A stretch of DNA of 64,000 bases from an uncultured Legionellales bacterium (GTDB lineage: Bacteria; Pseudomonadota; Gammaproteobacteria; JAHCLG01): assembly GCA_964352985.1 (NCBI GenBank), contig CAYGUK010000005.1, positions 125 through 64,124 on the forward strand, given 5' to 3'. The translations under genes were made by a program, and so were the position numbers. Under the pieces are notes generated by a model. That model had not been told where the DNA came from. It made no database searches and saw only the letters and a list, made by a program, of their open reading frames with translations. The first letter of the stretch is position 1, and each line of letters begins with the position of its first letter. Below are positions 47,031-64,000 of the stretch, in pieces.

Positions 47031-47390
47031 TCCTACACCAGTTTTTCCATATTAAAGGTTATTGTCCATAATTTGATTTGTTAATTTCATGATAGGTTAC
47101 TTATACAACCTATAATTCAAACGGTAATTTTTATCTCTATTATCAAATCGGTTGCGTCAGAAAAGTATGTTTAGGCATCGTTTCTTTCCATTAGTTACCT
47201 GTATTAAAAGATTATCATCACGAAAATGTAATAGCAATTAATTTTTATACCTGTATTACAGTTATAAAAATTTTGTTAAAATTCACTCCATTATAGCTAT
47301 TCGAAAAAATCGCAATTGAATTAGTTTTCTATTGTCTTTACGTCAGGGTTGACTAAGTCAAATTTTAGGTTGAAAATTTAATTCAATCTT

Positions 47391-48509
47391 ATGAATAAAT
47401 TAGGGTATTTCTTAGAAATGTATAATGAAAAAACAACAATTCGTGATCGATCACCTTGTCAAACATTAGCGATAATAAAGCCTTATATAAAACAAGCTGG
47501 TATTACACGAATTGCCGATATAACACAATTAGATACTATCGGTCTCCCTGTTTATACGTGTATAAGGCCGTTATCACGAAGCATAAGCACATCTCAAGGA
47601 AAAGGTCTAACCAAAGAATTAGCAAAATGCAGTGCCTATATGGAAGCCATAGAGCATTACTTTGCAGAAATTGTGAAATATGATTTTTATGGTAACGAAC
47701 TAGAAAATAAAGAAAAAAAATTCATAACGCCAGCTGATTTAGAATCAAATAATTTAAAATTAAAATATGATAATTCCACCTATATCGGCTGGAAAAAAGT
47801 TACAAATTTAAAGAATCATAGTTACTGTTATGTTCCGTTAGACGCAATATCTTTAGATTTAACAGTTAATAAAAAAACATCGAGTAAAACTTCATCAACA
47901 GGATTAGCATCCGGTAATAACCTAAACGAAGCTATATATTATGGATTACTTGAGGTTATAGAAAGGATCTATACAAAAAGATTTTTTAATCTTACAAAAT
48001 CAGAAAAGTTCGATTCAATAATAGAGATCAAATCTATAACTGATGATAACTGCCATTTATTATTTAAAAAATTAAAAAATAACAATATTAAAGTGACTAT
48101 ATTTAATATAACAAACAGATTAGAAATTCCTACATTTATGTGCTTACTAGAATCTCACGATAAATATAGCAATCATTATAATTACTATGGAATAAGTTCA
48201 AATTTAAATAGTGATATCGCTTTACAGCGATCAATTGTAGAAGCAATCCAATCAAGATTAACAGGGATTGCAAGCAGTAGAGATGATATTGATTATAAAA
48301 CAACAGCTAATACATCACCAATTAGTATCAACACAACAGGAAAACCATATAACTATCAAAACACAGAATTCACTTCATTTAATGAAGCTATCAATAAGAT
48401 ATTAAATAACGATTATTTTCATAATACCGATTTCTATTATTGCGATCTATTACCTAAGAACTCAGATATTTCAGTCATTAAAATTATTTCTTCCGGGGAT
48501 ATATCATGA
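47391..48509 (+). CDS. ycaO: YcaO-domain protein (ATP-dependent amide-backbone activating enzyme; cyclodehydratase/thioamidation family).
   Basis: 'SISTSQGKGLTKELAKCSAYMEAIEHYFA' matches the YcaO ATP-binding signature (S.GKG.T...A..SA.GEAIERY). 372 aa, minimal YcaO size. Confidence 0.85.
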   Translation: MNKLGYFLEMYNEKTTIRDRSPCQTLAIIKPYIKQAGITRIADITQLDTIGLPVYTCIRPLSRSISTSQGKGLTKELAKCSAYMEAIEHYFAEIVKYDFYGNELENKEKKFITPADLESNNLKLKYDNSTYIGWKKVTNLKNHSYCYVPLDAISLDLTVNKKTSSKTSSTGLASGNNLNEAIYYGLLEVIERIYTKRFFNLTKSEKFDSIIEIKSITDDNCHLLFKKLKNNNIKVTIFNITNRLEIPTFMCLLESHDKYSNHYNYYGISSNLNSDIALQRSIVEAIQSRLTGIASSRDDIDYKTTANTSPISINTTGKPYNYQNTEFTSFNEAINKILNNDYFHNTDFYYCDLLPKNSDISVIKIISSGDIS

Positions 48510-49795
48510 ATGAAATTATTGTCTTTTGTGGTTCAACCATTAAAAGAAGTGAAGTTCTTAAAATTTTACCCTTAGCAAATTGCCTGTCACCTATAAAAAA
48601 TGGGGATATTATTAAAGCAGTACGTTTGAAGCCAAAGATTATAATAATTATAGACGGATACTTTGCGAATCACATTTCGATTTGGCATAAAGAAATTTTA
48701 TTCGCCATTTCATGTGGTATAACTGTATATGGCGCCAGTAGTATGGGAGCACTTAGAGCCTCTGAATTATCTCAATTTGGAATGATTGGCTTTGGAGAAA
48801 TATATAATTTATACGATCAAAATATCATTGATGGCGACGATGAAGTTGCCGTTTCAATATATAAGACTAATGATAATATTCATACATCAATACCTCTAAT
48901 TGACATAAGGTTCACATTAGAAAAACATCAACATTCATTCACAGAGAAAGAAGTCGATTCATTTATTAGAGATATTAAAAGTATCGGTTATCCTCTTAGA
49001 GAATGGGATTATCTTTTGACAGATAAGAATTTCACATGCTATAGGACATTAATAAACTATATAAAAGAAAACTACATTAATCAAAAATTAATCGATGCAG
49101 AAAATTTATTAAATCACGTAAAAAATAATGCTAATGTGATAATTAAACAAAACATAGATACTTCTGATATAATAACTGTATATTTTAGAAAACTGTATCG
49201 TCACTATATTAATGAACCATTTGATCATGCTTATGATTGGTTACCTAAAGAAGAAAAAATGCTTTTCGGTATTAAATCAAAGAATAAATATTATGAATAT
49301 TTTCACGGCTTGAGTATACTTATACACATATATTACGACTTAAAAAAAACAAATAAAACACCCTTGAAATTTATAAGTGAAATAAAAGAACGCGCATCAA
49401 CAACAAACACAGGAGTTGAAATAAAGTCTTCTATTAATGATTACTATAATATCGAGACGAACAAGAGCGATAGTAAACAACTAGATATTAACAATATGTT
49501 TTATTTTTTAATATTAAACATAAAAAATCTTTTAAATAATTCAGGCTATTACTTAAACGCAAATTATGTAAGTGAAATTACCTTAAAATTTAGAGTAAGT
49601 AAAAAATTATTAACTAAAAACGAATTTCAAAACTGGGTCTCATCTAAAAAATTTAATAAAAAACAAACTAAAGAGTTTTTTCTGATTTATAGTTTTGTAG
49701 AATTATTAAACAATAAAATAGACAATATTGAATTCAATATGAAATATAATAAAGTAAATTGGTTAAGGCATTTAGTTGAAACACTAAGTGATTAA
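48506..49795 (+). CDS. tfuA: TfuA-like protein with a C-terminal extension of about 200 aa.
   Basis: 'IIIIIDGYFANHISIWHKEILFAISCGITVYGASSMGALRASELSQFGMIGFGEIY...DDEVAV' matches the TfuA domain. There is a 4-bp overlap with ycaO. 429 aa, whereas ~200-260 aa is typical. Confidence 0.85.
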   Translation: MNEIIVFCGSTIKRSEVLKILPLANCLSPIKNGDIIKAVRLKPKIIIIIDGYFANHISIWHKEILFAISCGITVYGASSMGALRASELSQFGMIGFGEIYNLYDQNIIDGDDEVAVSIYKTNDNIHTSIPLIDIRFTLEKHQHSFTEKEVDSFIRDIKSIGYPLREWDYLLTDKNFTCYRTLINYIKENYINQKLIDAENLLNHVKNNANVIIKQNIDTSDIITVYFRKLYRHYINEPFDHAYDWLPKEEKMLFGIKSKNKYYEYFHGLSILIHIYYDLKKTNKTPLKFISEIKERASTTNTGVEIKSSINDYYNIETNKSDSKQLDINNMFYFLILNIKNLLNNSGYYLNANYVSEITLKFRVSKKLLTKNEFQNWVSSKKFNKKQTKEFFLIYSFVELLNNKIDNIEFNMKYNKVNWLRHLVETLSD

Positions 49796-55910: not shown

Positions 55911-56984
55911 ATGAAGGTTCAACAAGTGAGAAATTATCACGGTTTAACGCTTTGGATAGTTATTGATGATAGCTATTTGCCCGTAGCACCTATTACAGAG
56001 TTTATAATCTATCTTGCCAATACTGAGAAATCACCATTTACCATTCGATCTTATGCGAACCATTTAAAGCTATTCTGGGATTATGTAGTAAGCAATAAGA
56101 TTAATTGGCAAACAATTAAGTTAAATCAATTAGCAAGCTTTATAGCGTATCTCAGACGCCATAATGTTGATGATACGGTTATTGATATTACACAAAAAGC
56201 TGATAGGAAAATATCGACTGTGAACACGATTTCATCGTGTGTATGTAGTTTTTACCAATATCATAATCAAGTTGGTCACACTTCAATAGATTTCACAGAA
56301 TCCACATTTTATAGTGGTAGTCGTTATAAAGGCTTGTTGCATCATCTTTATCGAGGAAAACCGACGCGTAAAAAAATATTAACCTTAAAAAATGTTAAAG
56401 AAGCACCAAAAACAATTACAACAGAGCAATTTAATAAACTAATAAATAATTGTTGTAATAAACGTGATATTTTCCTTGTGACATTATTATTTGAAACAGG
56501 ATTAAGAATTGGTCAAGCATTAGCTTTAAGACATGAAGATATCGTTAGCTGGGATAATATTATTAATATTAAGTATCGTTATGATAATTTAAATAACGTT
56601 AGAAACAAATCTAAAAGACAAAATATTATCCATGTATCAAATAGTTTGTTAAACGCCTATACAGATTATGTGATTTCATTAGAGCAAAGCAAAATTGGTG
56701 AATATGTTTTTATTAACTTAAATGATTATACGCCTTTACGATATTCAGCTGTTAGAAAGCTATTTTCAAGATTCACTAAACAATGTGGTTTCAAGGTAAC
56801 ACCACATATGCTTCGACACAGTCATGCTACACAACTAATTGAGGCTGGCTGGGATAGCTCATTAATACAAAAGAGACTTGGCCATTCAAGTGTTCAAACA
56901 ACCATTAATACATATGCGCATATTGATAACAAAACTTTAAAACAAGCCTACAAAGAATATCAAAATAGCAAGGAGGTAAAATAA
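55911..56984 (+). CDS. Tyrosine recombinase (TnpA-like, Tn554 family).
   Basis: 'HMLRHSHATQLIEAGWDSSLIQKRLGHSSVQTTINTYAHI'. 357 aa. Confidence 0.8.
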   Translation: MKVQQVRNYHGLTLWIVIDDSYLPVAPITEFIIYLANTEKSPFTIRSYANHLKLFWDYVVSNKINWQTIKLNQLASFIAYLRRHNVDDTVIDITQKADRKISTVNTISSCVCSFYQYHNQVGHTSIDFTESTFYSGSRYKGLLHHLYRGKPTRKKILTLKNVKEAPKTITTEQFNKLINNCCNKRDIFLVTLLFETGLRIGQALALRHEDIVSWDNIINIKYRYDNLNNVRNKSKRQNIIHVSNSLLNAYTDYVISLEQSKIGEYVFINLNDYTPLRYSAVRKLFSRFTKQCGFKVTPHMLRHSHATQLIEAGWDSSLIQKRLGHSSVQTTINTYAHIDNKTLKQAYKEYQNSKEVK

Positions 56985-58396
56985 TGACTATTCAAACAAC
57001 AAAGCTAAAATCATTAAGTATTTCTTTTAATGATAAACAGGAAAAACTATTGAATAAAAATAGATGGCATGTAAGTGATATTAATTTAGCTGCTGATAAG
57101 ACTCATAGCACATATTACTTAGACTTTAATAAAATAAGCATTGATTGGTTAAGACAATGCGCTAAAAAGTTCGTGATATTTCAATCTGTGACAAAATCTT
57201 TAGCATCATGCAAAGCGTATATCACGTCCCTATTCCATTTTAATAGTTATTTACTAACATTAGATATCATTATTAAACAAGAAAATGTTAATAGACAACT
57301 GATTGTGGGATATATTGAATATCTTTCCGCATCTAAACTTGGTGTTGTGGCCAAACAAATAGCGCTTATTAATTTACGAACATTTCACCAAGTTGTATTA
57401 CAAGAAGAGTGGTTAAGTTGGCCAGAGAGGCCACTAATCTATTCCAGTGATCTACCAAAAAATATTAATAATTACCCAAGATTTATACCGGAAACTGTAA
57501 TCAAACAGTTATTGAAACATATTGTTAATTTACCAGAATATCTCCAAGCAATAGTTATTGTCTTATTGGAAACTGGTCGAAGAGTCAGTGAAGTAGTTGC
57601 CCTACCCGTTGATTGCTTAGAGCAAGATTCTGATAAAGATTGGTTATTAAAAGTTTATGAAAGAAAAATGAAACGTAAACGATTATTACCTATCTCTGCT
57701 GAATGTTTAAAAGTGATAAAAAATCAACAAAAGAATATTAATAAACAAAGTGATTCGACTTATTTATTTCCATCTCGCCGTAAAGATTCTAGTAGTTCAC
57801 ATATTACCGCTAGATACATCAATATGGTATTAAATAAATTATCAGATAAATACAATATTGTTGATGATAATGAAAAACGTTGGCAATTTTCATCTCATCA
57901 GTTTCGCCATACTGTAGGAACGAGAATGATCAACTCTGGTGTTAGTCAATTTGTTGTTCAGAAGTATCTAGGTCATGAATCACCAGAAATGACAGCAAAA
58001 TATGCTTATATCCATGATGAAACAATGAAGAAAGCATATTTTGATTTTAAGAAAAATATGATTGATATTAATGGTGAGATAGTCAGAAATGATAAGTCAA
58101 TGCTTGATGTTCAGTGGTTAAAAAAGAACATCACTACACAAGCGCTGCCTAACGGATTATGTGGCTTGCCACTAACACAAAATAAATGTCCTCATGCTAA
58201 TGCTTGCCTAACATGTTCTAATTTTAGAACAAGCAAGCAATATATTAATCAACATAAAAATCAACTTAAAGAAACTGAAATAATTATTGAAAATGCCAAT
58301 AAAAATGGTTGGACAAGAATAGTTGAAATGAATACTACTGTCAAAGAGAACTTAACTAATATAATTGAAACTCTTGAGGAGCAAGAGAATGAATAA
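56984..58396 (+). CDS. Tyrosine recombinase (TnpB-like, Tn554 family).
   Basis: 'FRHTVGTRMINSGVSQFVVQKYLGHESPEMTAKYAYI'. 470 aa. Its start overlaps the stop of the upstream recombinase gene. Confidence 0.8.
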   Translation: MTIQTTKLKSLSISFNDKQEKLLNKNRWHVSDINLAADKTHSTYYLDFNKISIDWLRQCAKKFVIFQSVTKSLASCKAYITSLFHFNSYLLTLDIIIKQENVNRQLIVGYIEYLSASKLGVVAKQIALINLRTFHQVVLQEEWLSWPERPLIYSSDLPKNINNYPRFIPETVIKQLLKHIVNLPEYLQAIVIVLLETGRRVSEVVALPVDCLEQDSDKDWLLKVYERKMKRKRLLPISAECLKVIKNQQKNINKQSDSTYLFPSRRKDSSSSHITARYINMVLNKLSDKYNIVDDNEKRWQFSSHQFRHTVGTRMINSGVSQFVVQKYLGHESPEMTAKYAYIHDETMKKAYFDFKKNMIDINGEIVRNDKSMLDVQWLKKNITTQALPNGLCGLPLTQNKCPHANACLTCSNFRTSKQYINQHKNQLKETEIIIENANKNGWTRIVEMNTTVKENLTNIIETLEEQENE

Positions 58397-58778
58397 TGAT
58401 AAAATTAATTCAAGGCAAATTAATGCACTAAAGAAAGCGACAGCCAATAGAAAAGCAGATATTTTTGTGCGTGTTAATGAAGCATTAAAATTAATGAAAC
58501 AAGATGAAATCCCTATATCATTCCAATCTGTCGCTAAATATGCAAATGTATCCAAAACAACACTATATGCGAGATCAGAGTTAAAATCTCTAGTTGAGCA
58601 AGAACGAAACAATAATGAAAATATTAATCGCTTACACGAAAAAGATAAAGTAATCCTTCGACAAAAAAAAGAAATATCTGTTTTGACTAAACGTGTTGGT
58701 TATTTACAAACAGAGTTATCTGAACTTAAACAGCAGTTAGAGGTGATTTATGGTAAGTATTTGACTAATATCAAATAA
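58365..58778 (+). CDS. Small HTH/coiled-coil protein (TnpC-like accessory protein).
   Basis: 137 aa. HTH 'ISFQSVAKYANVSKTTLYA', then a coiled coil. It overlaps the 3' end of the second recombinase gene. Confidence 0.5.
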   Translation: MKLLRSKRMNNDKINSRQINALKKATANRKADIFVRVNEALKLMKQDEIPISFQSVAKYANVSKTTLYARSELKSLVEQERNNNENINRLHEKDKVILRQKKEISVLTKRVGYLQTELSELKQQLEVIYGKYLTNIK

Positions 58779-58844
58779 ATACAAAAGATTATACCACCTT
58801 ATAGAGTATTTGTAGTTTACAATAATATTTACTAAGCTAAGAAT

Positions 58845-59087
58845 GTGAGGCTGGTGTCTTCTCGGTATGGTTTAACATGTTTGCAGTTGATGATGATGCA
58901 ACATTTTGCTGTGTCGATTCTGTGGGATTTAACCCACACCTTTTATGGAGTACTCAACATGAGTAAATACTATAAACGTGGAAGAGACTCTCGAACTGGC
59001 AGATTCATAACTGTCAAAGAAGCAGAACGTCGTAAAGCTACGACAACTGTAGAAAGAGTTCCTCGAAGTAAGAAGAAATCTAAATAA
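58845..59087 (+). CDS. Small basic hypothetical protein.
   Basis: 80-aa ORF. The C-terminal half is Lys/Arg-rich. Confidence 0.2.
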   Translation: MRLVSSRYGLTCLQLMMMQHFAVSILWDLTHTFYGVLNMSKYYKRGRDSRTGRFITVKEAERRKATTTVERVPRSKKKSK

Positions 59088-59472
59088 TATTTAGGTTTTA
59101 ATACCAGCTTCACTTTAATTCTGGGTTAGCCACAGTAAATAATTTGAAAATTAAATTACCCGAATAAATTCTTAAATAGCTACCAGAAGTCTCAATTTTA
59201 TCAATAGCGCAAGTTTTACATTTATTTTTCGACTCACAAACCATAATTTTTTTTTCTTATTGGTATGATAGCAATTGTATAATTACGAATTAATTTATTA
59301 CAGCCATCAAGATGGCAATGGAAATAACTTATTCCCTTAAAAACCAATGGGCTTTTGCCATCATATATGTGCAATTTAGCAGCAATAATATTTGAACTAA
59401 TAAAATAATAAGATTAAAAAAAATATTCTATTGGTTAACATTAAAGTTTTTCCCTAAATAAAAAAATAATTT

Positions 59473-59865
59473 TCAAAAACTAGAATTATCAAATGCTCTT
59501 GCAACACATCTATTTCTTACCAAAAATACTTTCTTAATAAGGGTTTTAATCTCCTTATCTTTTTCTTTCCTAATCATTTCATTTTTATCTTTAAGTATAA
59601 TATACACATAAGATTCGAATGTTAGAACGTGAGGCAGCTCATCTCTAAGACAAGAACAAAATATTACATTTCCAACGGCTTTTAAACAGCCATAGTATCG
59701 TTTGATATCGATATTCTTGGAGATCGCTTTATATTGCTCCGCTGCTGCTAATCCTTGCTCAATCTGCTGTGATTGTTCAATAGACTTAAAATCATGGTTG
59801 GTCGCATGTACCAAAGTAAATACAAACATACTAACTAATATAATACATGAAAATTTAATATGCAT
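59473..59865 (-). CDS. Secreted hypothetical protein.
   Basis: Signal peptide 'MHIKFSCIILVSMFVFTLVHA'. 130 aa, several Cys. Confidence 0.3.
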   Translation of the reverse strand: MHIKFSCIILVSMFVFTLVHATNHDFKSIEQSQQIEQGLAAAEQYKAISKNIDIKRYYGCLKAVGNVIFCSCLRDELPHVLTFESYVYIILKDKNEMIRKEKDKEIKTLIKKVFLVRNRCVARAFDNSSF

Positions 59866-59974
59866 TGCCTGCTCCTCTGACGCTTATTAATTAGTATAAA
59901 ATAAATTTGATTTATTAAAAGTTATCACTCGCTCGAACAATGACATTTTGGACACTATAAGAAATATAAAAATA

Positions 59975-60574
59975 CTAAAAAATATCTTCCGAAATTTTAC
60001 CCAATCGCACCGGATTATCTTCCACGTATTTCGCGGTCATCGTAATTGAGCGATGTCCCATTAATGTTGAGACCGCTTTGATATCAACGCCCTTCTCGAT
60101 TAAGCGTGTTGCAAATGTGCGTCGCCCGGAATGAGAGCTTGCCCCTTTAATACCTGCCAGTTGATATAAATGATACAACAATTGTTGTATCGAGTTTGGT
60201 GAAAATCGCCCTGCTTTTTGTGATAAAAATAATGGCCGCTCTGGATGGTAAGGAAAATCGTGTTTTGGTTTTGTTTCTTCTATGTAAGTAGCTAAGGCTT
60301 TTCGTAACTTGGAATTAGTGAGATAAAGAAAGCGAGCACTCTCCCCTTTTACTTGCAAGCTATTCATAAACGCTTGGTCATAGATTTTTTGTTGTACACA
60401 ATCAAAAACATCACCCAGGTTGAGCAATGCCAGTTCTTTTGCGCGTAATCCCAACCCAAAAGAAAAATACAGTATTGTGATATTACGGTTTGCGTGTTGC
60501 CCAGATTGCGCAACACGCAAAAGTCGTTTAAATTCATCGTCGGTTAATACTTTCGCTTTCCCTTGCTTGGCCAT
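59975..60574 (-). CDS. Short tyrosine recombinase (catalytic domain only; FimB/ResD-like size).
   Basis: 'LRAKELALL' (box I Arg), 'SSHSGRRTFATRLIEKGVDIKAVSTLMGHRSITMTAKY' (H-x-x-R ... H ... Y). 199 aa. Confidence 0.7.
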   Translation of the reverse strand: MAKQGKAKVLTDDEFKRLLRVAQSGQHANRNITILYFSFGLGLRAKELALLNLGDVFDCVQQKIYDQAFMNSLQVKGESARFLYLTNSKLRKALATYIEETKPKHDFPYHPERPLFLSQKAGRFSPNSIQQLLYHLYQLAGIKGASSHSGRRTFATRLIEKGVDIKAVSTLMGHRSITMTAKYVEDNPVRLGKISEDIF

Positions 60575-60607
60575 TTATCCTCCAGTTTATTAACTAACTC
60601 AATTTAA

Positions 60608-60841
60608 CTATTTCTTGCCTGGAGTAAGCTGAGTACTTGTGCCTTCTTCCTGAACATGACGAATAACAGCGGATGCATTAGGAGCAACTCTAAATTCTCC
60701 ATCTGCTATATTTGCTGGTACAGACAAATCACCTGATGTAATCATAGCATTATTCACCCGTAGTAATTCGGCTTTAGTGTAAGTAAATTTTCCACCGTGT
60801 TGTTGCTTACCTATTTTTAATTTATCTGCATCATGAGGCAT
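60608..60841 (-). CDS. Small hypothetical protein upstream of and co-oriented with the short recombinase.
   Basis: 77-aa ORF. Confidence 0.3.
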   Translation of the reverse strand: MPHDADKLKIGKQQHGGKFTYTKAELLRVNNAMITSGDLSVPANIADGEFRVAPNASAVIRHVQEEGTSTQLTPGKK

Positions 60842-61053
60842 TATGTATCTTTTCCTTTTAAAATTGTAAGAAAGTCATGTTAAAAAAATATTGGGTAAAT
60901 AATCACCAAAATTAAACATTGGCGATTAAAACTAAGTTACTGCACATTTTAAGGATATAACAGCAGAATAGGTTAAAAATACCATAAAACAATAGTATTA
61001 ACATATTAATTTTTAAGCTTCGTTTTTACCTGTCTAAGAGGCCGCATAAACAC

Positions 61054-61091
61054 TGATAATCTGTTAAAAGTATACTTTTAACAGATTATCA
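61054..61091. repeat. Perfect 38-bp palindrome (19-bp arms, no spacer): TGATAATCTGTTAAAAGTA|TACTTTTAACAGATTATCA.
   Basis: Exact reverse-complement symmetry read directly from the sequence. It lies about 105 bp upstream of the coiled-coil gene and about 480 bp from the short recombinase. Confidence 0.85.
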
Positions 61092-61196
61092 ATTTCAGGC
61101 TAAACCCTTGCTTTGTATTAATGGCAAAACGCGGTAAAATAATCAAGACCGAGAAATCAAGGCTGATTATTCCAATAACTGCGAGGTATTTTTTGT

Positions 61197-61781
61197 ATGG
61201 CTAAAAACAGGGAAATAGTAATTAACCGCTATGAAGAGAATCAGAAAGCAAAAGGCATCGTCGTATTTAAGCTTAGACTACATGAAAAATACCGAGACAG
61301 ATTTCGTAACATTGCAGAACAAAAAGAAATTGAGCTTAGAGAAGATCTAAACGTAGATCTCCGTACAGTAGAAGCTTTAGCAAATCGATTAACACTTGAG
61401 GAAATGATGGATCATGATTGGCAAAAGTTTACTCAACTAAAGAATATTATAGAGGAAAAAAGCATTGCATTGGCTAAATCCCTCCCCTACTATATTAAAG
61501 AATCGCCTGATCAAGATACCAATATTCCTGAGCCCATTAAACAATTACCAGATGATCCTTTTGAGCTAAAGCGACGACTAGCATTGAGTGAAAAAGCACG
61601 AATTGATGCACATAATGAAATCCAACAATTAAAAGAAAAATGCAAAAATTTAAAAAACAAACTGAAAAATATAGAAAGGGTCTATCAGCAACAAATTGAA
61701 ATAAATGATGCACAAGAAAATACGATTAAAAATTTAACAGCAATATTAAATGATTATGATTTACCTTACGACTTAATCTAA
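61197..61781 (+). CDS. Coiled-coil protein, possibly a KfrA-like DNA-binding/plasmid-maintenance protein.
   Basis: 194 aa, rich in heptad-type E/K/L repeats. Positional association with the par region. The assignment is weak. Confidence 0.3.
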   Translation: MAKNREIVINRYEENQKAKGIVVFKLRLHEKYRDRFRNIAEQKEIELREDLNVDLRTVEALANRLTLEEMMDHDWQKFTQLKNIIEEKSIALAKSLPYYIKESPDQDTNIPEPIKQLPDDPFELKRRLALSEKARIDAHNEIQQLKEKCKNLKNKLKNIERVYQQQIEINDAQENTIKNLTAILNDYDLPYDLI

Positions 61782-61870
61782 TGCCTACATGCTCAAATAT
61801 TAAATTTATAAATTAGATCCTGAAAAATGTTGGTAGCCATTTAAACATATCCAAAATATTAAGAATTTAA

Positions 61871-62648
61871 ACGGTAAACAATTATTGTTTAGGAACAACT
61901 TTTGAATAAAAAAAACGGTAAACAAGCAAATAAGGAAAAAGATCATATGGCACAATAAACGGTAAACAGAGGAAACTTTCAGCTTAACAACGGTAAACAA
62001 ACGGTAAACAATACAAGCAATAACTATTTAGTTAACTTAAACTACTTTCTAAAATAAGGATATTAACTACATAAAACGGTAAACAACATCGCGTCAAATA
62101 ATAATTATTATACAATTAGTTAGACATCTACGGTAAACAATAAAAAACTGTTCGCAGATGAACAGATAATTAAAAGGAAAGCACAAAATGAGCCCCTATT
62201 TAATGGTAAACAAACGGTAAACATTAATCATAACGAGATACGTAAACGGTAAACAAATATATAAAGGATAAAATTTTTAATCATTTAAAACGGTAAACAA
62301 ATTTATTTTACAGGGCGTCTGCTTAAACATTGAACGGTAAACAATAGAGTTTAAACGGTAAACAATCGGTGAACAAACGGTAAATATTTCAGTAAATATT
62401 AATATTATAAATTCAATATCTTAAATAATAACGGTAATCAAACGGTAAACAATGTACAATTTCTAAATTTTGTAAATTTAATTACACCTTTTAACGGTAA
62501 ACAAAGCGGTATCACAACGATAAACAAACGGTAAACAAATTGGTAACATTTAATAATTTTATTACTTTGATTTAATGTATTATTTAAGTTAACGGTAAAC
62601 AAGCGGTAAACAAAGTGGTATCACAACTAGTATCAGAAGTGGTAACAA
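61871..62648. repeat. Iteron array: at least 20 copies of an 11-bp ACGGTAAACAA motif and close variants (GCGGTAAACAA, AATGGTAAACAA, GTGGTATCACAA) over about 780 bp, with irregular spacing, upstream of parA.
   Basis: Copies start at 61871, 61915, 61959, 61990, 62001, 62076, 62130, 62202, 62214, 62246, 62290, 62334, 62355, 62366, 62377, 62431, 62442, 62494, 62518, 62528, 62592, 62603, 62614 and 62638. Confidence 0.85.
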
Positions 62649-62738
62649 TTGATGCTAATAGTAGTATTTATTAATAAATTTAAAATAATACTATTAATTT
62701 AAAATGAGATAATGATTTAAATATTTTAAACTTAATGT

Positions 62739-62766
62739 TTGACATAGTTTAAGTTTTTAGTAAAAT
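62739..62766 (+). promoter_or_regulatory. Putative sigma70 promoter of parA (TTGACA-16-TAAAAT), embedded in an AAACTTAA / TTAAGTTT inverted repeat.
   Basis: TTGACA at 62739-62744, TAAAAT at 62761-62766. Flanking AAACTTAA (62728-62735) and TTAAGTTT (62748-62755) form a dyad across the -35. Confidence 0.4.
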
Positions 62767-62802
62767 TTAAGAAAATCTTAAACTTACTGTGGAAACGGAT
62801 TT

Positions 62803-63849
62803 ATGAAATCTTCTAATTATGGAAATTTGAATACCCAACCCAAAATAGCAATTGCAAATGTAGCAGACTTTCTAGGTGTAACCACTCAAGCTGTGCATAA
62901 ACAATTAAAAGACCGTAATATCGTCTGTCCAAGAATGGGAAATAAATTATTTATTAATTTTGAAATCGCAAGAAAATTACTAGGGATTAATTTTCACAAG
63001 AAGAAAATAGTAGGGCAGATTGTTAAGGGTGGTACAGGTAAAACTACAGCGATTGATAATATTTCTAGTTGTGCTAATTCATATGGCGCACGTGTATTAA
63101 AAATAGATGCTGATCCTCAAGGAAATTTAACTGACGCAAATGGAGTTGATGCAGAAGAATTACCAGTGCTCATTGACGCCATTAAAAATGATGTAACTAT
63201 AAGCGAGTGTATTGTTAATCTTGCGCCTGGAATGGATTTGATCCCAAGTAGAATAGAAAATGTAATTTTAGATAATGAAATTGTTAATAAAAGATTACCG
63301 TTGGATAAGCTATATTCAAATCTTTTACATGAAATTGAAGATAATTACGATTTTATTTTTATTGATTGTCCTCCAACTATGGGACAGGCTGTTACAGCTG
63401 CAAGTCTATATGCAGATATAATACTAGCACCTTTGAATCCTGATCAGTTTAGTGCAAAAGGTCTTAAAATACTTAGGAATGAAATTAAGACATTGAATGA
63501 CAATTTTTTTAAGGATAAAGCTAAGAAAATTGAATATAAGATTTTTCTTAACAAATTTAGTGGTAAAACATTGCTTTCTGATAAAGCTCTTTATTCCTTA
63601 CTTAGCGATCCCGATTTGGATAATAGATTACTGCCAAATACAATACAGTATACCCAGGAGATCCCAAATATTACTGATGAAAGTAAAAACCTTTTTTCAG
63701 TATTAAAGAAATCAGTAGTTCGTGATGACTTTGATCAAATAACTAAAAGTTTACTCGATATCGAACCTGTAAAATTATCTAAAAAGGATAATAATACTGT
63801 CAGCATAAAGAATAGTTTTGAAGTCCAAGAAGAGGTTGCTAGCGCATAA
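62803..63849 (+). CDS. parA: ParA/SopA-family partition ATPase with an N-terminal HTH (type Ia-like).
   Basis: Deviant Walker A 'KGGTGKTT'. N-terminal 'VADFLGVTTQAVHKQLK' HTH. 'FIDCPPT' (Walker B region). 348 aa. Confidence 0.85.
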   Translation: MKSSNYGNLNTQPKIAIANVADFLGVTTQAVHKQLKDRNIVCPRMGNKLFINFEIARKLLGINFHKKKIVGQIVKGGTGKTTAIDNISSCANSYGARVLKIDADPQGNLTDANGVDAEELPVLIDAIKNDVTISECIVNLAPGMDLIPSRIENVILDNEIVNKRLPLDKLYSNLLHEIEDNYDFIFIDCPPTMGQAVTAASLYADIILAPLNPDQFSAKGLKILRNEIKTLNDNFFKDKAKKIEYKIFLNKFSGKTLLSDKALYSLLSDPDLDNRLLPNTIQYTQEIPNITDESKNLFSVLKKSVVRDDFDQITKSLLDIEPVKLSKKDNNTVSIKNSFEVQEEVASA

Positions 63850-63850
63850 G

Positions 63851-64000
63851 GAGTGGCAACATGCCAAAATTGGAAGAATTAATGGCTAGTCGGAGTAAAA
63901 AATTTGTAAAAAAAACATATCGTCCATGGGATTTAAGTGGTGAAAACAATGTTGATGCTGAACGTCTTCCTGAAAGTGAAACATCTAAATCTAAAAAAAC
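63851..64000 (+). CDS. 5' portion of the gene downstream of parA, probably parB. It runs off the window.
   Basis: ATG at 63851, two nt after the parA stop. Only about 50 codons are visible, so no motif can be confirmed. Confidence 0.3.

Follow-up and report, generated by a model that had tools for sequence, protein, structure and literature searches.

What does a long array of short direct repeats do beside a plasmid partition gene, and which protein reads it? The question is raised by a 64,000 nt stretch of DNA (hereafter the window) from an uncultured Legionellales bacterium (assembly GCA_964352985.1, contig CAYGUK010000005.1), in which about 27 units of an 11-mer, ACGGTAAACAA, are spread over 780 bp upstream of a parA gene. 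An earlier reading of the sequence by itself (the original prediction) had proposed a centromere, an origin iteron field, or both. The comparisons described here indicate that the array is probably a plasmid centromere, acting as a multivalent binding site for the product of the gene directly downstream of parA. This protein, called X below, belongs to an undescribed winged-helix family.

The 11-mer array

A mismatch search found 14 exact copies of ACGGTAAACAA between 61871 and 62613, together with six copies carrying one mismatch and two carrying two mismatches. All 22 are on the + strand, in the same orientation as parA. Five degenerate units were added by reading the sequence (62505, AGCGGTATCACA; 62539, ATTGGTAACAT; 62614, AGTGGTATCACAA; 62627, CTAGTATCAGA; 62638, AGTGGTAACAA), bringing the total to about 27 and bearing out the iteron array that had been predicted upstream of parA. 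The singlets, tandem doublets and variant classes described earlier are all present, and the units are grouped in 14–15 clusters that also include one triplet and two promoter-proximal blocks of five units (Table 1). The degenerate units (62505–62648) cluster toward the promoter-proximal end of the array, and their cores (GGTATCA, GTATCA, GGTAACA) are closer to the GGTATC, GATATC and GATAAC of Legionella relatives than to ACGGTAAACAA.

Outside the array, no match to ACGGTAAACAA with one mismatch or fewer occurs in the 64 kb window. The 26 matches found there each carry two mismatches and lie on both strands, so that the entire window holds 48 matches, compared with 24.6 ± 4.7 in shuffled sequences. 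With no copy elsewhere in the 64 kb, the array does not have the appearance of a repeat family dispersed through a chromosome, which had been named as the observation that would count against the original prediction.

The spacers between clusters are irregular in length (20–64 bp) and AT-rich (21.8% GC), as first described, but their lengths are not random: the starts of the clusters keep to a 10.75-bp period (Rayleigh R = 0.87–0.88; none of 2000 and none of 1000 random placements reached this R), a lattice that places all sites on the same face of the helix. Spacer-to-spacer identity is 31–35%, against 33% predicted from base composition; the spacers are thus unrelated in sequence, and the array is not a recent duplication of a longer unit. 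That phase has been kept across unrelated spacers points to selection for both the sites and the side of the helix that they face. Between the end of the array and the −35 hexamer of the parA promoter are 91 bp, in agreement with the approximately 90 bp given previously. The 90 bp adjoining the promoter share the low GC content of the spacers, although AT-richness of this kind is not diagnostic of an unwinding element. No Rfam match was found in window positions 58000–64000, or in two of the related loci described below (L027 and L010).

A parA-X-array module in related plasmids

All of the relatives examined carry a ParA of the same subfamily, X beginning 10–17 nt downstream of it, and co-oriented repeats of 11–12 bp. 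The repeats sit in a gene-free region of 0.6–1.2 kb upstream of parA, inside X, or in both places, and never in parA. Carriers of the module are plasmids of Legionella, Piscirickettsia and Cardinium and related metagenomic contigs, and the repeat sequence is lineage-specific (Table 1). The closest ParA proteins, 69–72% identical to that of the window, come from pLPL-type plasmids of Legionella pneumophila and from metagenomic contigs. The array of one Piscirickettsia salmonis locus (L010) is near-identical in motif to that of the window, has the same singlet and doublet layout, and is also phased. For the interspersed arrays of the GATATC type (L001, L006) phasing was not significant, with crude motif definitions. 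No description of a parA-X-array module was found in the searchable literature.

Metagenome contigs were scanned for the doublet core. True ACGGTAAACAA arrays were found solely beside parA-X homologues (L019/L020 and L027/L029); most of the 50 matches to the doublet were chance doublets, one contig (L015) carried a eukaryote-like minisatellite, and viral contigs gave no matches to the doublet motif.

In L019/L020 and L027/L029 the repeats are inside X, in the DNA coding for its two disordered linkers. In-gene copies number 8–9 in L010 and 10–12 in L012/L063, and are less dense in L006, L009 and L011. The corresponding linker peptides are translated repeats (NGKQTVNKR, NGTQTEHKRNT, EYRNNQEHIS). 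The window takes up almost all of a 64,159-bp NCBI contig, which ends 159 bp past it. This contig stops about 300 nt into X, where relatives carry in-gene arrays, and a second array of the repeats inside X may be what interrupted the assembly.

In an L. pneumophila contig (L007 4300–5790; GCA_015905685) the 12-mer repeats form blocks of about 15 and about 45 copies with approximately 770 bp between them. This insert includes the C-terminal end of an IS3-like transposase, and an insertion sequence (IS) has apparently landed in the array.

The partner protein X

The peptide encoded at the start of the window's X (MPKLEELMASRSKKFVKKTYRPWDLSG) aligns to the invariant N-terminus of the family, which has the pattern MPxLxELxxxRxxKKFxKKxYRPWDLSG. 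X is 350–470 aa long in relatives and has no Pfam domains. The family comprises 291 clusters at 90% identity (E <= 1e-5) and 1,435 representatives at 50% identity (E <= 1e-10), and is present on 93 PLSDB plasmids: 78 from Piscirickettsia, 12 from Legionella, two 'Candidatus' records (one of them Cardinium) and one from Cysteiniphilum. An AlphaFold model of X shows a short N-terminal helix, a disordered linker (residues 28–124), a confident winged helix (130–225) and a confident helical C-terminal domain (265–425). The winged helix resembles MarR/ArsR-type regulators and also the winged helices of TubR and ORC, and the C-terminal domain has no match among solved structures. Neither a ParB_N nor an HTH_ParB domain was found in X, and there was no match to Pfam Rep families, including RepA_N. 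The gene after parA, earlier taken to be a probable parB, does not encode a ParB homologue; it belongs to a Pfam-less family with a MarR/ArsR-like winged helix, and has only the N-terminal peptide in common with canonical ParB.

The extent of that likeness is seen in a Rickettsiales plasmid whose ParA is 54% identical to that of the window and is followed by a canonical ParB (ParB_N and HTH_ParB). The first 36 residues of this ParB match the X profile (hhalign probability 92.9%, E = 3.7e-7, 36 columns), which argues that X stands in the place of ParB with the same ParA-facing module. Disordered N-termini of ParB proteins bind ParA and stimulate it (PMC5393062). A short form of X in Candidatus Megaera (172 aa) consists of the peptide, the linker and the winged helix alone.

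The peptide, in the form MP.I..L......KF.KK.YRPW, heads the canonical ParB of Rickettsiales bacterium Ac37b plasmid 2 (L002 1177–2211) as well as the 172-aa Megaera protein (L066 3971–4489), which is followed by a DnaA-like gene. Its presence on both a ParB core and a winged-helix protein indicates that it acts as a module swapped between DNA-binding cores. The annotated starts of X in L. israelensis (L065 4520–4602) and in the plasmid of L. pneumophila FFI329 (NZ_CP016875; L001 7052) apparently lie too far downstream, removing all or part of the conserved peptide (MPTIDELSNKSSKRKFKKSDYRPW in L065). The first open reading frame (ORF) of the window was considered as a continuation of X across a circular junction and was rejected, as there is no similarity and the frames are incompatible.

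Which protein reads the repeats

The gene after parA, a 194-aa coiled-coil protein encoded on the other side of the array and a Rep outside the region in view had been put forward as candidate binders. The first of these is favoured by comparison of the module across lineages. ParA carries an N-terminal extension of about 65 aa with a conserved segment resembling a helix-turn-helix (HTH), for which the orthologue in L011 gives a weak HTH_17 match. This HTH is nearly invariant across loci with unrelated repeats, including the locus with a canonical ParB, and so cannot set repeat specificity. Three X proteins associated with ACGG-type repeats have a distinct recognition helix (KT[ST]I[NA]RLK) and wing (KDGRGGWV), while X proteins of the GATATC type have KTTIKRLIDK and AKGGYINLG at the same two elements. 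The pattern is suggestive of repeat specificity that follows X and not ParA, and X is the predicted reader of the array, with the ParA HTH and the coiled-coil protein both disfavoured.

It is very improbable that another protein reads the array, whether the 194-aa protein or the ParA HTH acting on an extended operator. The coiled-coil gene ends only 90 bp from the array, and the N-terminus of its product could form a small DNA-binding fold (a sequence impression only), but no homologue was found at related array-bearing loci (tblastn, E <= 1), so the protein is not a regular companion of the array. Its Pfam matches are weak coiled-coil ones below threshold, and it has none in NCBIfam. Large ParA proteins do bind their own promoter regions (PMC5393062), but apart from the near-identity of the HTH at loci with unrelated repeats, a 19-nt inverted repeat overlapping the −10 hexamer of the parA promoter (Table 1) is the better candidate for a ParA operator. 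By analogy with the autoregulation of type Ia ParA proteins (PMC5393062), this inverted repeat is probably the operator for the N-terminal HTH.

Centromere or replication element

The centromere half of the original prediction gains strong comparative support from these results, and the array is best viewed as a likely plasmid centromere with many predicted sites for X. Each 11-bp unit would be the site for a single winged helix of X or for one dimer of X. With the bound X placed by phasing on one face of the DNA, the whole 780 bp might be folded into a single large nucleoprotein complex. Many basic N-terminal peptides would be displayed to nucleoid-bound ParA-ATP on linkers of about 100 aa, and these peptides would stimulate the ParA ATPase, as ParB tails do, so driving partition. 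X is without the N-terminal (CTPase/spreading) domain of ParB, and many sites, about 27 in the window and up to about 49 in relatives, may replace spreading as the means of loading adaptors; the lack of a loading and spreading domain would thus call for a high adaptor valency through many sites, accounting for the size of the array. The ParA HTH would probably not act at the array but repress the operon from the inverted repeat that overlaps the −10 hexamer. Binding of X to the repeats, activation of ParA by the peptide and the partition function of the complex are what we infer from the comparisons.

Several points weigh against a centromere bound by X. Its support is all comparative, and the window's own X can be read for the first 46 residues, its DNA-binding domain being inferred from relatives. 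Co-variation between winged helix and motif comes from few sequences and could be explained by shared ancestry. There are plasmids with no recognisable Rep in which parA and X are the only candidate maintenance genes, where the repeats or X may serve, or also serve, replication. Sites inside the linker-coding DNA of their own binder are known for RepA_N initiators and not for centromere-binding proteins (PMC5703833). Foldseek against viral models gave weak matches over two domains of X, with E values of 1e-4 to 5e-3, to replisome organisers and replication proteins of phages.

These points lead to the alternative of a replication element, with X as an initiator like RepA_N or a replisome organiser and the 11-mers as origin or copy-control (handcuffing) iterons. 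Such a role, which we regard as possible but doubtful, may add to that of a centromere, with X serving both as initiator and as partition adaptor; that it replaces the centromere role is less likely. The site upstream of parA would resemble that of incA in P1, located between repA and parA. In three complete or circular replicons with parA-X, no recognisable Rep is present besides X. These are a 33-kb conjugative L. pneumophila plasmid (L011), an 18.9-kb P. salmonis plasmid (L063), and a 4,278-bp circle recovered as two circular permutations (L027, Ga0180438_10042930, with a 123-bp terminal overlap; L029, Ga0180437_10043129). In the circle, a ParA-like protein of 343 aa and X are the only products of ORFs of more than 90 aa, and the circle is a possible minimal replicon of the parA-X type. 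The published analysis of P. salmonis plasmids found no origin or iterons, and for pPSLF89-2 and pPSLF89-3 no rep gene, origin or iterons are reported (PMC6963756). In L010, L012/L063, L019 and L027/L029, the lineage's own motif is within the linker-coding DNA of X, mirroring pSK41, where the Rep boxes are central in rep and the linker is dispensable (PMC5703833). The Legionella plasmids with AATCA-type repeats, L011 and L065, carry a perfect DnaA box (TGTGGATAA, parA-sense strand) at the distal edge of the repeats (at about 15270 and 2680, respectively). Foldseek also returned weak matches to replisome organiser, replication protein and DnaD models, but the structural matches of X are dominated by generic winged helices. 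The conserved C-terminal domain of X has no obvious partition role, and is absent from the short Megaera form whose gene precedes the DnaA-like gene.

Against a replication role, the window has its own candidate initiator. The original prediction had allowed for a Rep lying out of view, but a 295-aa protein with an N-terminal HTH_36 domain is encoded within the window, 15 kb from the array (Table 1). This domain has counterparts, about 45% identical, in DnaD-domain and 'replication protein' genes from plasmids of Bacillus and Staphylococcus, and the protein is a plausible candidate for the plasmid initiator by sequence. No sequence similarity of X to this protein (hhalign) or to any Pfam Rep family was found, and adjoining the array no match to a Rep family was found for X, ParA or the 194-aa protein. 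No DnaA box with one mismatch or fewer is present in 59200–62800, so none lies in or beside the array. The suggested check for a GC-skew switch was run, and neither a switch nor an extremum was seen at the array, although skew is weak evidence on a mosaic plasmid. Arrays of 27–49 short units are far above the usual number of origin iterons, and the ParA-interaction peptide common to X and true ParB would not be needed by a pure initiator. A further proposal, with lower confidence than either role by itself and rather unlikely in our estimate, is that X couples replication and partition, being a winged-helix protein of initiator type to which a ParB-type peptide that activates ParA has been added. 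On the same speculative footing, the arrays upstream of parA and in the linker-coding DNA would be origin or copy-control iterons and centromere at once.

The AT-rich region upstream of the HTH_36 gene (47031–47390) carries two copies of TAATACAGGTA. A homologue of the HTH_36 N-terminal domain is found on the P. salmonis plasmid p5PS2 (L012 8105–8389), but L011, L063 and the 4.28-kb circle yielded none.

It is extremely improbable that the array is a repeat with no function, such as a minisatellite or slippage product or a member of a dispersed family of the host genome. Expansion of the unit by slippage can occur, as seen from the perfect tandem arrays of L007 and L009, and the eukaryote-like contig L015 carries a chance tandem of the same 11-mer. 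In the window, however, the units are interspersed with unrelated spacers and keep helical phase; they are strictly co-oriented and do not recur in the other 63 kb. The position beside parA-X is conserved across genera while the motifs are lineage-specific, and in prokaryote-like metagenomic contigs arrays of ACGGTAAACAA always occur with parA-X homologues.

Comparison with known partition and replication systems

As a centromere, the array and its partners would function in the manner of types Ib, II and III, whose centromeres are also repeat arrays, but the module belongs to none of these types. The iterons of R1 parC (type II) are, like those of the window, units of 11 bp. In its published description, parC is likewise a centromere of short direct repeats upstream of the par operon, arranged as two sets of five iterons, and ParR is a small adaptor that binds cooperatively and forms one large complex, similar to that proposed for X and the array (PMC2241845). 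The R1 system differs in that its motor is the actin-like ParM and its adaptor a ribbon-helix-helix protein, whereas the motor of the window is a Walker ParA; in addition, the ten units of parC flank the promoter, compared with about 27 over 780 bp. TubR (type III) also forms a higher-order complex on tubC that is comparable to the one proposed for X. Both type II (ParMRC) and type III (TubZRC) have actin- or tubulin-like motors, while that of the window is a Walker/deviant-Walker ATPase.

In plasmid pAD1, arrays of 25 and 13 repeats of 8 bp flank repBC. The RepB-RepC and PrgP-PrgO systems of pAD1 and pCF10, and type Ib systems such as TP228 parFGH and pSM19035 delta/omega, combine a Walker ParA with a non-spreading adaptor that is not ParB, as is proposed here (PMC5393062). 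The adaptors of these systems bind short direct repeats that are present in many copies upstream of the operon or on its flanks, and activate ParA by a flexible N-terminal tail (PMC5393062). Multiple short direct repeats upstream of the operon are thus a trait common to type Ib centromeres and the array of the window. However, the ParA proteins of these systems are small (about 200–230 aa in type Ib) and lack an N-terminal HTH, whereas ParA of the window has 348 aa with an HTH extension, and their adaptors are ribbon-helix-helix proteins of 50–130 aa, whereas X has 350–470 aa and a winged helix.

These features of ParA are shared with type Ia ParABS systems (P1, F sopABC), which have a large ParA with an N-terminal HTH, an adaptor gene directly downstream and a repetitive centromere, as does the window with its array as the predicted centromere. 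The F centromere sopC consists of 12 repeats of 43 bp. The type Ia partner is ParB, however, and X has neither ParB_N nor HTH_ParB; the type Ia centromere lies downstream of parB and is built of palindromic parS, and that of the parA-X module would be made of direct repeats, 11-bp units in the window, placed upstream of parA, inside X or in both; the window itself ends before the region downstream of X. A direct-repeat array placed directly upstream of parA, as in the window, is known from P1 incA. This element consists of 19-bp RepA sites next to repA, whereas the array of the window adjoins no Rep gene and, unlike incA, its motif seems to co-vary with the gene downstream of parA.

The RepA_N initiator of pSK41 resembles X in having a winged helix, linker-coding DNA that contains its own binding repeats, and a conserved C-terminal domain (PMC5703833); this layout is seen in X of L010, L012/L063, L019 and L027/L029. 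There are four Rep boxes in pSK41, compared with tens of units in the arrays linked to X, and X differs from RepA_N proteins in showing no sequence match, in its extra N-terminal ParA peptide, and in always following parA.

The surrounding contig

The plasmid-like character of the window is seen in its type IV secretion genes (VirB4- and VirB11-like), in several tyrosine recombinases and in a YcaO/TfuA pair. No near-identical plasmid was found in PLSDB (megablast, 61000–64000 and 28000–52000), and a scan of genome contigs with ParA returned only an unrelated Lachnospiraceae ParA. The top NCBIfam match of ParA is PrgP, at 67 bits against a cut-off of 400.

The YcaO cyclodehydratase/TfuA pair is at 47391–49795, and pLPL has YcaO and TfuA near parA-X (L004 9733–11821). 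Three consecutive genes at 55911–58778 encode two tyrosine recombinases, of 357 aa and 470 aa, and a protein of 137 aa whose match to DUF6262 is sub-threshold (24.1 bits, cut-off 29 bits), and look like a recombinase-trio mobile element. A 199-aa integrase is encoded at 59975–60574 (− strand); small integrases are also found upstream of parA in L010 and L065.

Table 1. Features of the window and of related parA-X loci (positions in the window unless a locus is named).
Feature	Location	Strand	Description
Rep candidate, 295 aa	46143–47030	−	N-terminal HTH_36, about 45% identical to DnaD-domain/replication proteins
194-aa protein, coiled-coil C-terminal half	61197–61781		Orphan gene between integrase region and array
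11-mer array	61871–62648	+	About 27 units of ACGGTAAACAA: 14 exact, 8 with 1–2 mismatches, 5 degenerate
Five-unit contiguous block	62494–62549	+	Includes variants GCGGTATCACA and TTGGTAACAT
Five-unit contiguous block, promoter-proximal	62592–62648	+	Last three units degenerate
Sigma-70-like parA promoter	62739–62766	+	TTGACA, 16 nt, TAAAAT; 11/12 consensus matches
19-nt inverted repeat	62746–62784	.	84% complementary, arms 1 nt apart, overlaps −10 hexamer
parA	62803–63849	+	348-aa Walker-type ATPase, ParA/MinD superfamily; Pfam AAA_31 (E = 1e-34, residues 70–235)
X, 5′ end (46 codons)	63861–64000	+	Gene cut by window end; encodes conserved N-terminal peptide MPKLEELMASRSKKFVKKTYRPWDLSG
Repeats, pLPL-type L. 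pneumophila plasmid	L001		Interspersed TAGATATC
Repeats, locus with ParA 72% identical to that of the window	L006		Interspersed TAGATAWC
Repeats, L. pneumophila contig	L007		About 60 tandem 12-mers AGGTATCCTTTC, two blocks split by IS fragment
Repeats, Legionella sp. km772	L009		About 42 tandem 12-mers CTTAGATATCRT
Repeats, P. salmonis	L010		ACGGAACACAA as singlets, doublets and triplets; phased at 10.70 bp, p = 0.006
Repeats, L. pneumophila and L. israelensis	L011, L065		Units with AATCA core
Repeats, P. salmonis	L012		ATAGGAACA
Repeats, Cardinium	L064		TTRGTAGTC
X with in-gene repeats	L019 936–2336	−	
X with in-gene repeats	L010 3218–4285		
X with in-gene repeats	L012 29214–30581		
X with in-gene repeats	L063 7154–8572		

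Implications

Plasmids of Legionella and Piscirickettsia, both pathogens, have had no defined centromere, and many are without an identified replication initiator. They have in common a recognisable maintenance module that consists of ParA, the large winged-helix family of its partner X, and phased arrays that are specific to each lineage. What sets this module apart is the joining of a large, type Ia-like ParA with an HTH to an adaptor from an undescribed winged-helix family. It also suggests that a partner without the ParB spreading domain may compensate by tens of binding sites. In several relatives the layout is unusual, in that the predicted sites of the binder are within the DNA coding for its own disordered linker. 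The module provides candidate incompatibility determinants and parts for stable vectors in Legionella and Piscirickettsia. If X does couple replication with partition, this would account for the absence of a recognisable Rep from many plasmids of Legionella and Piscirickettsia and from the 4.28-kb circle.

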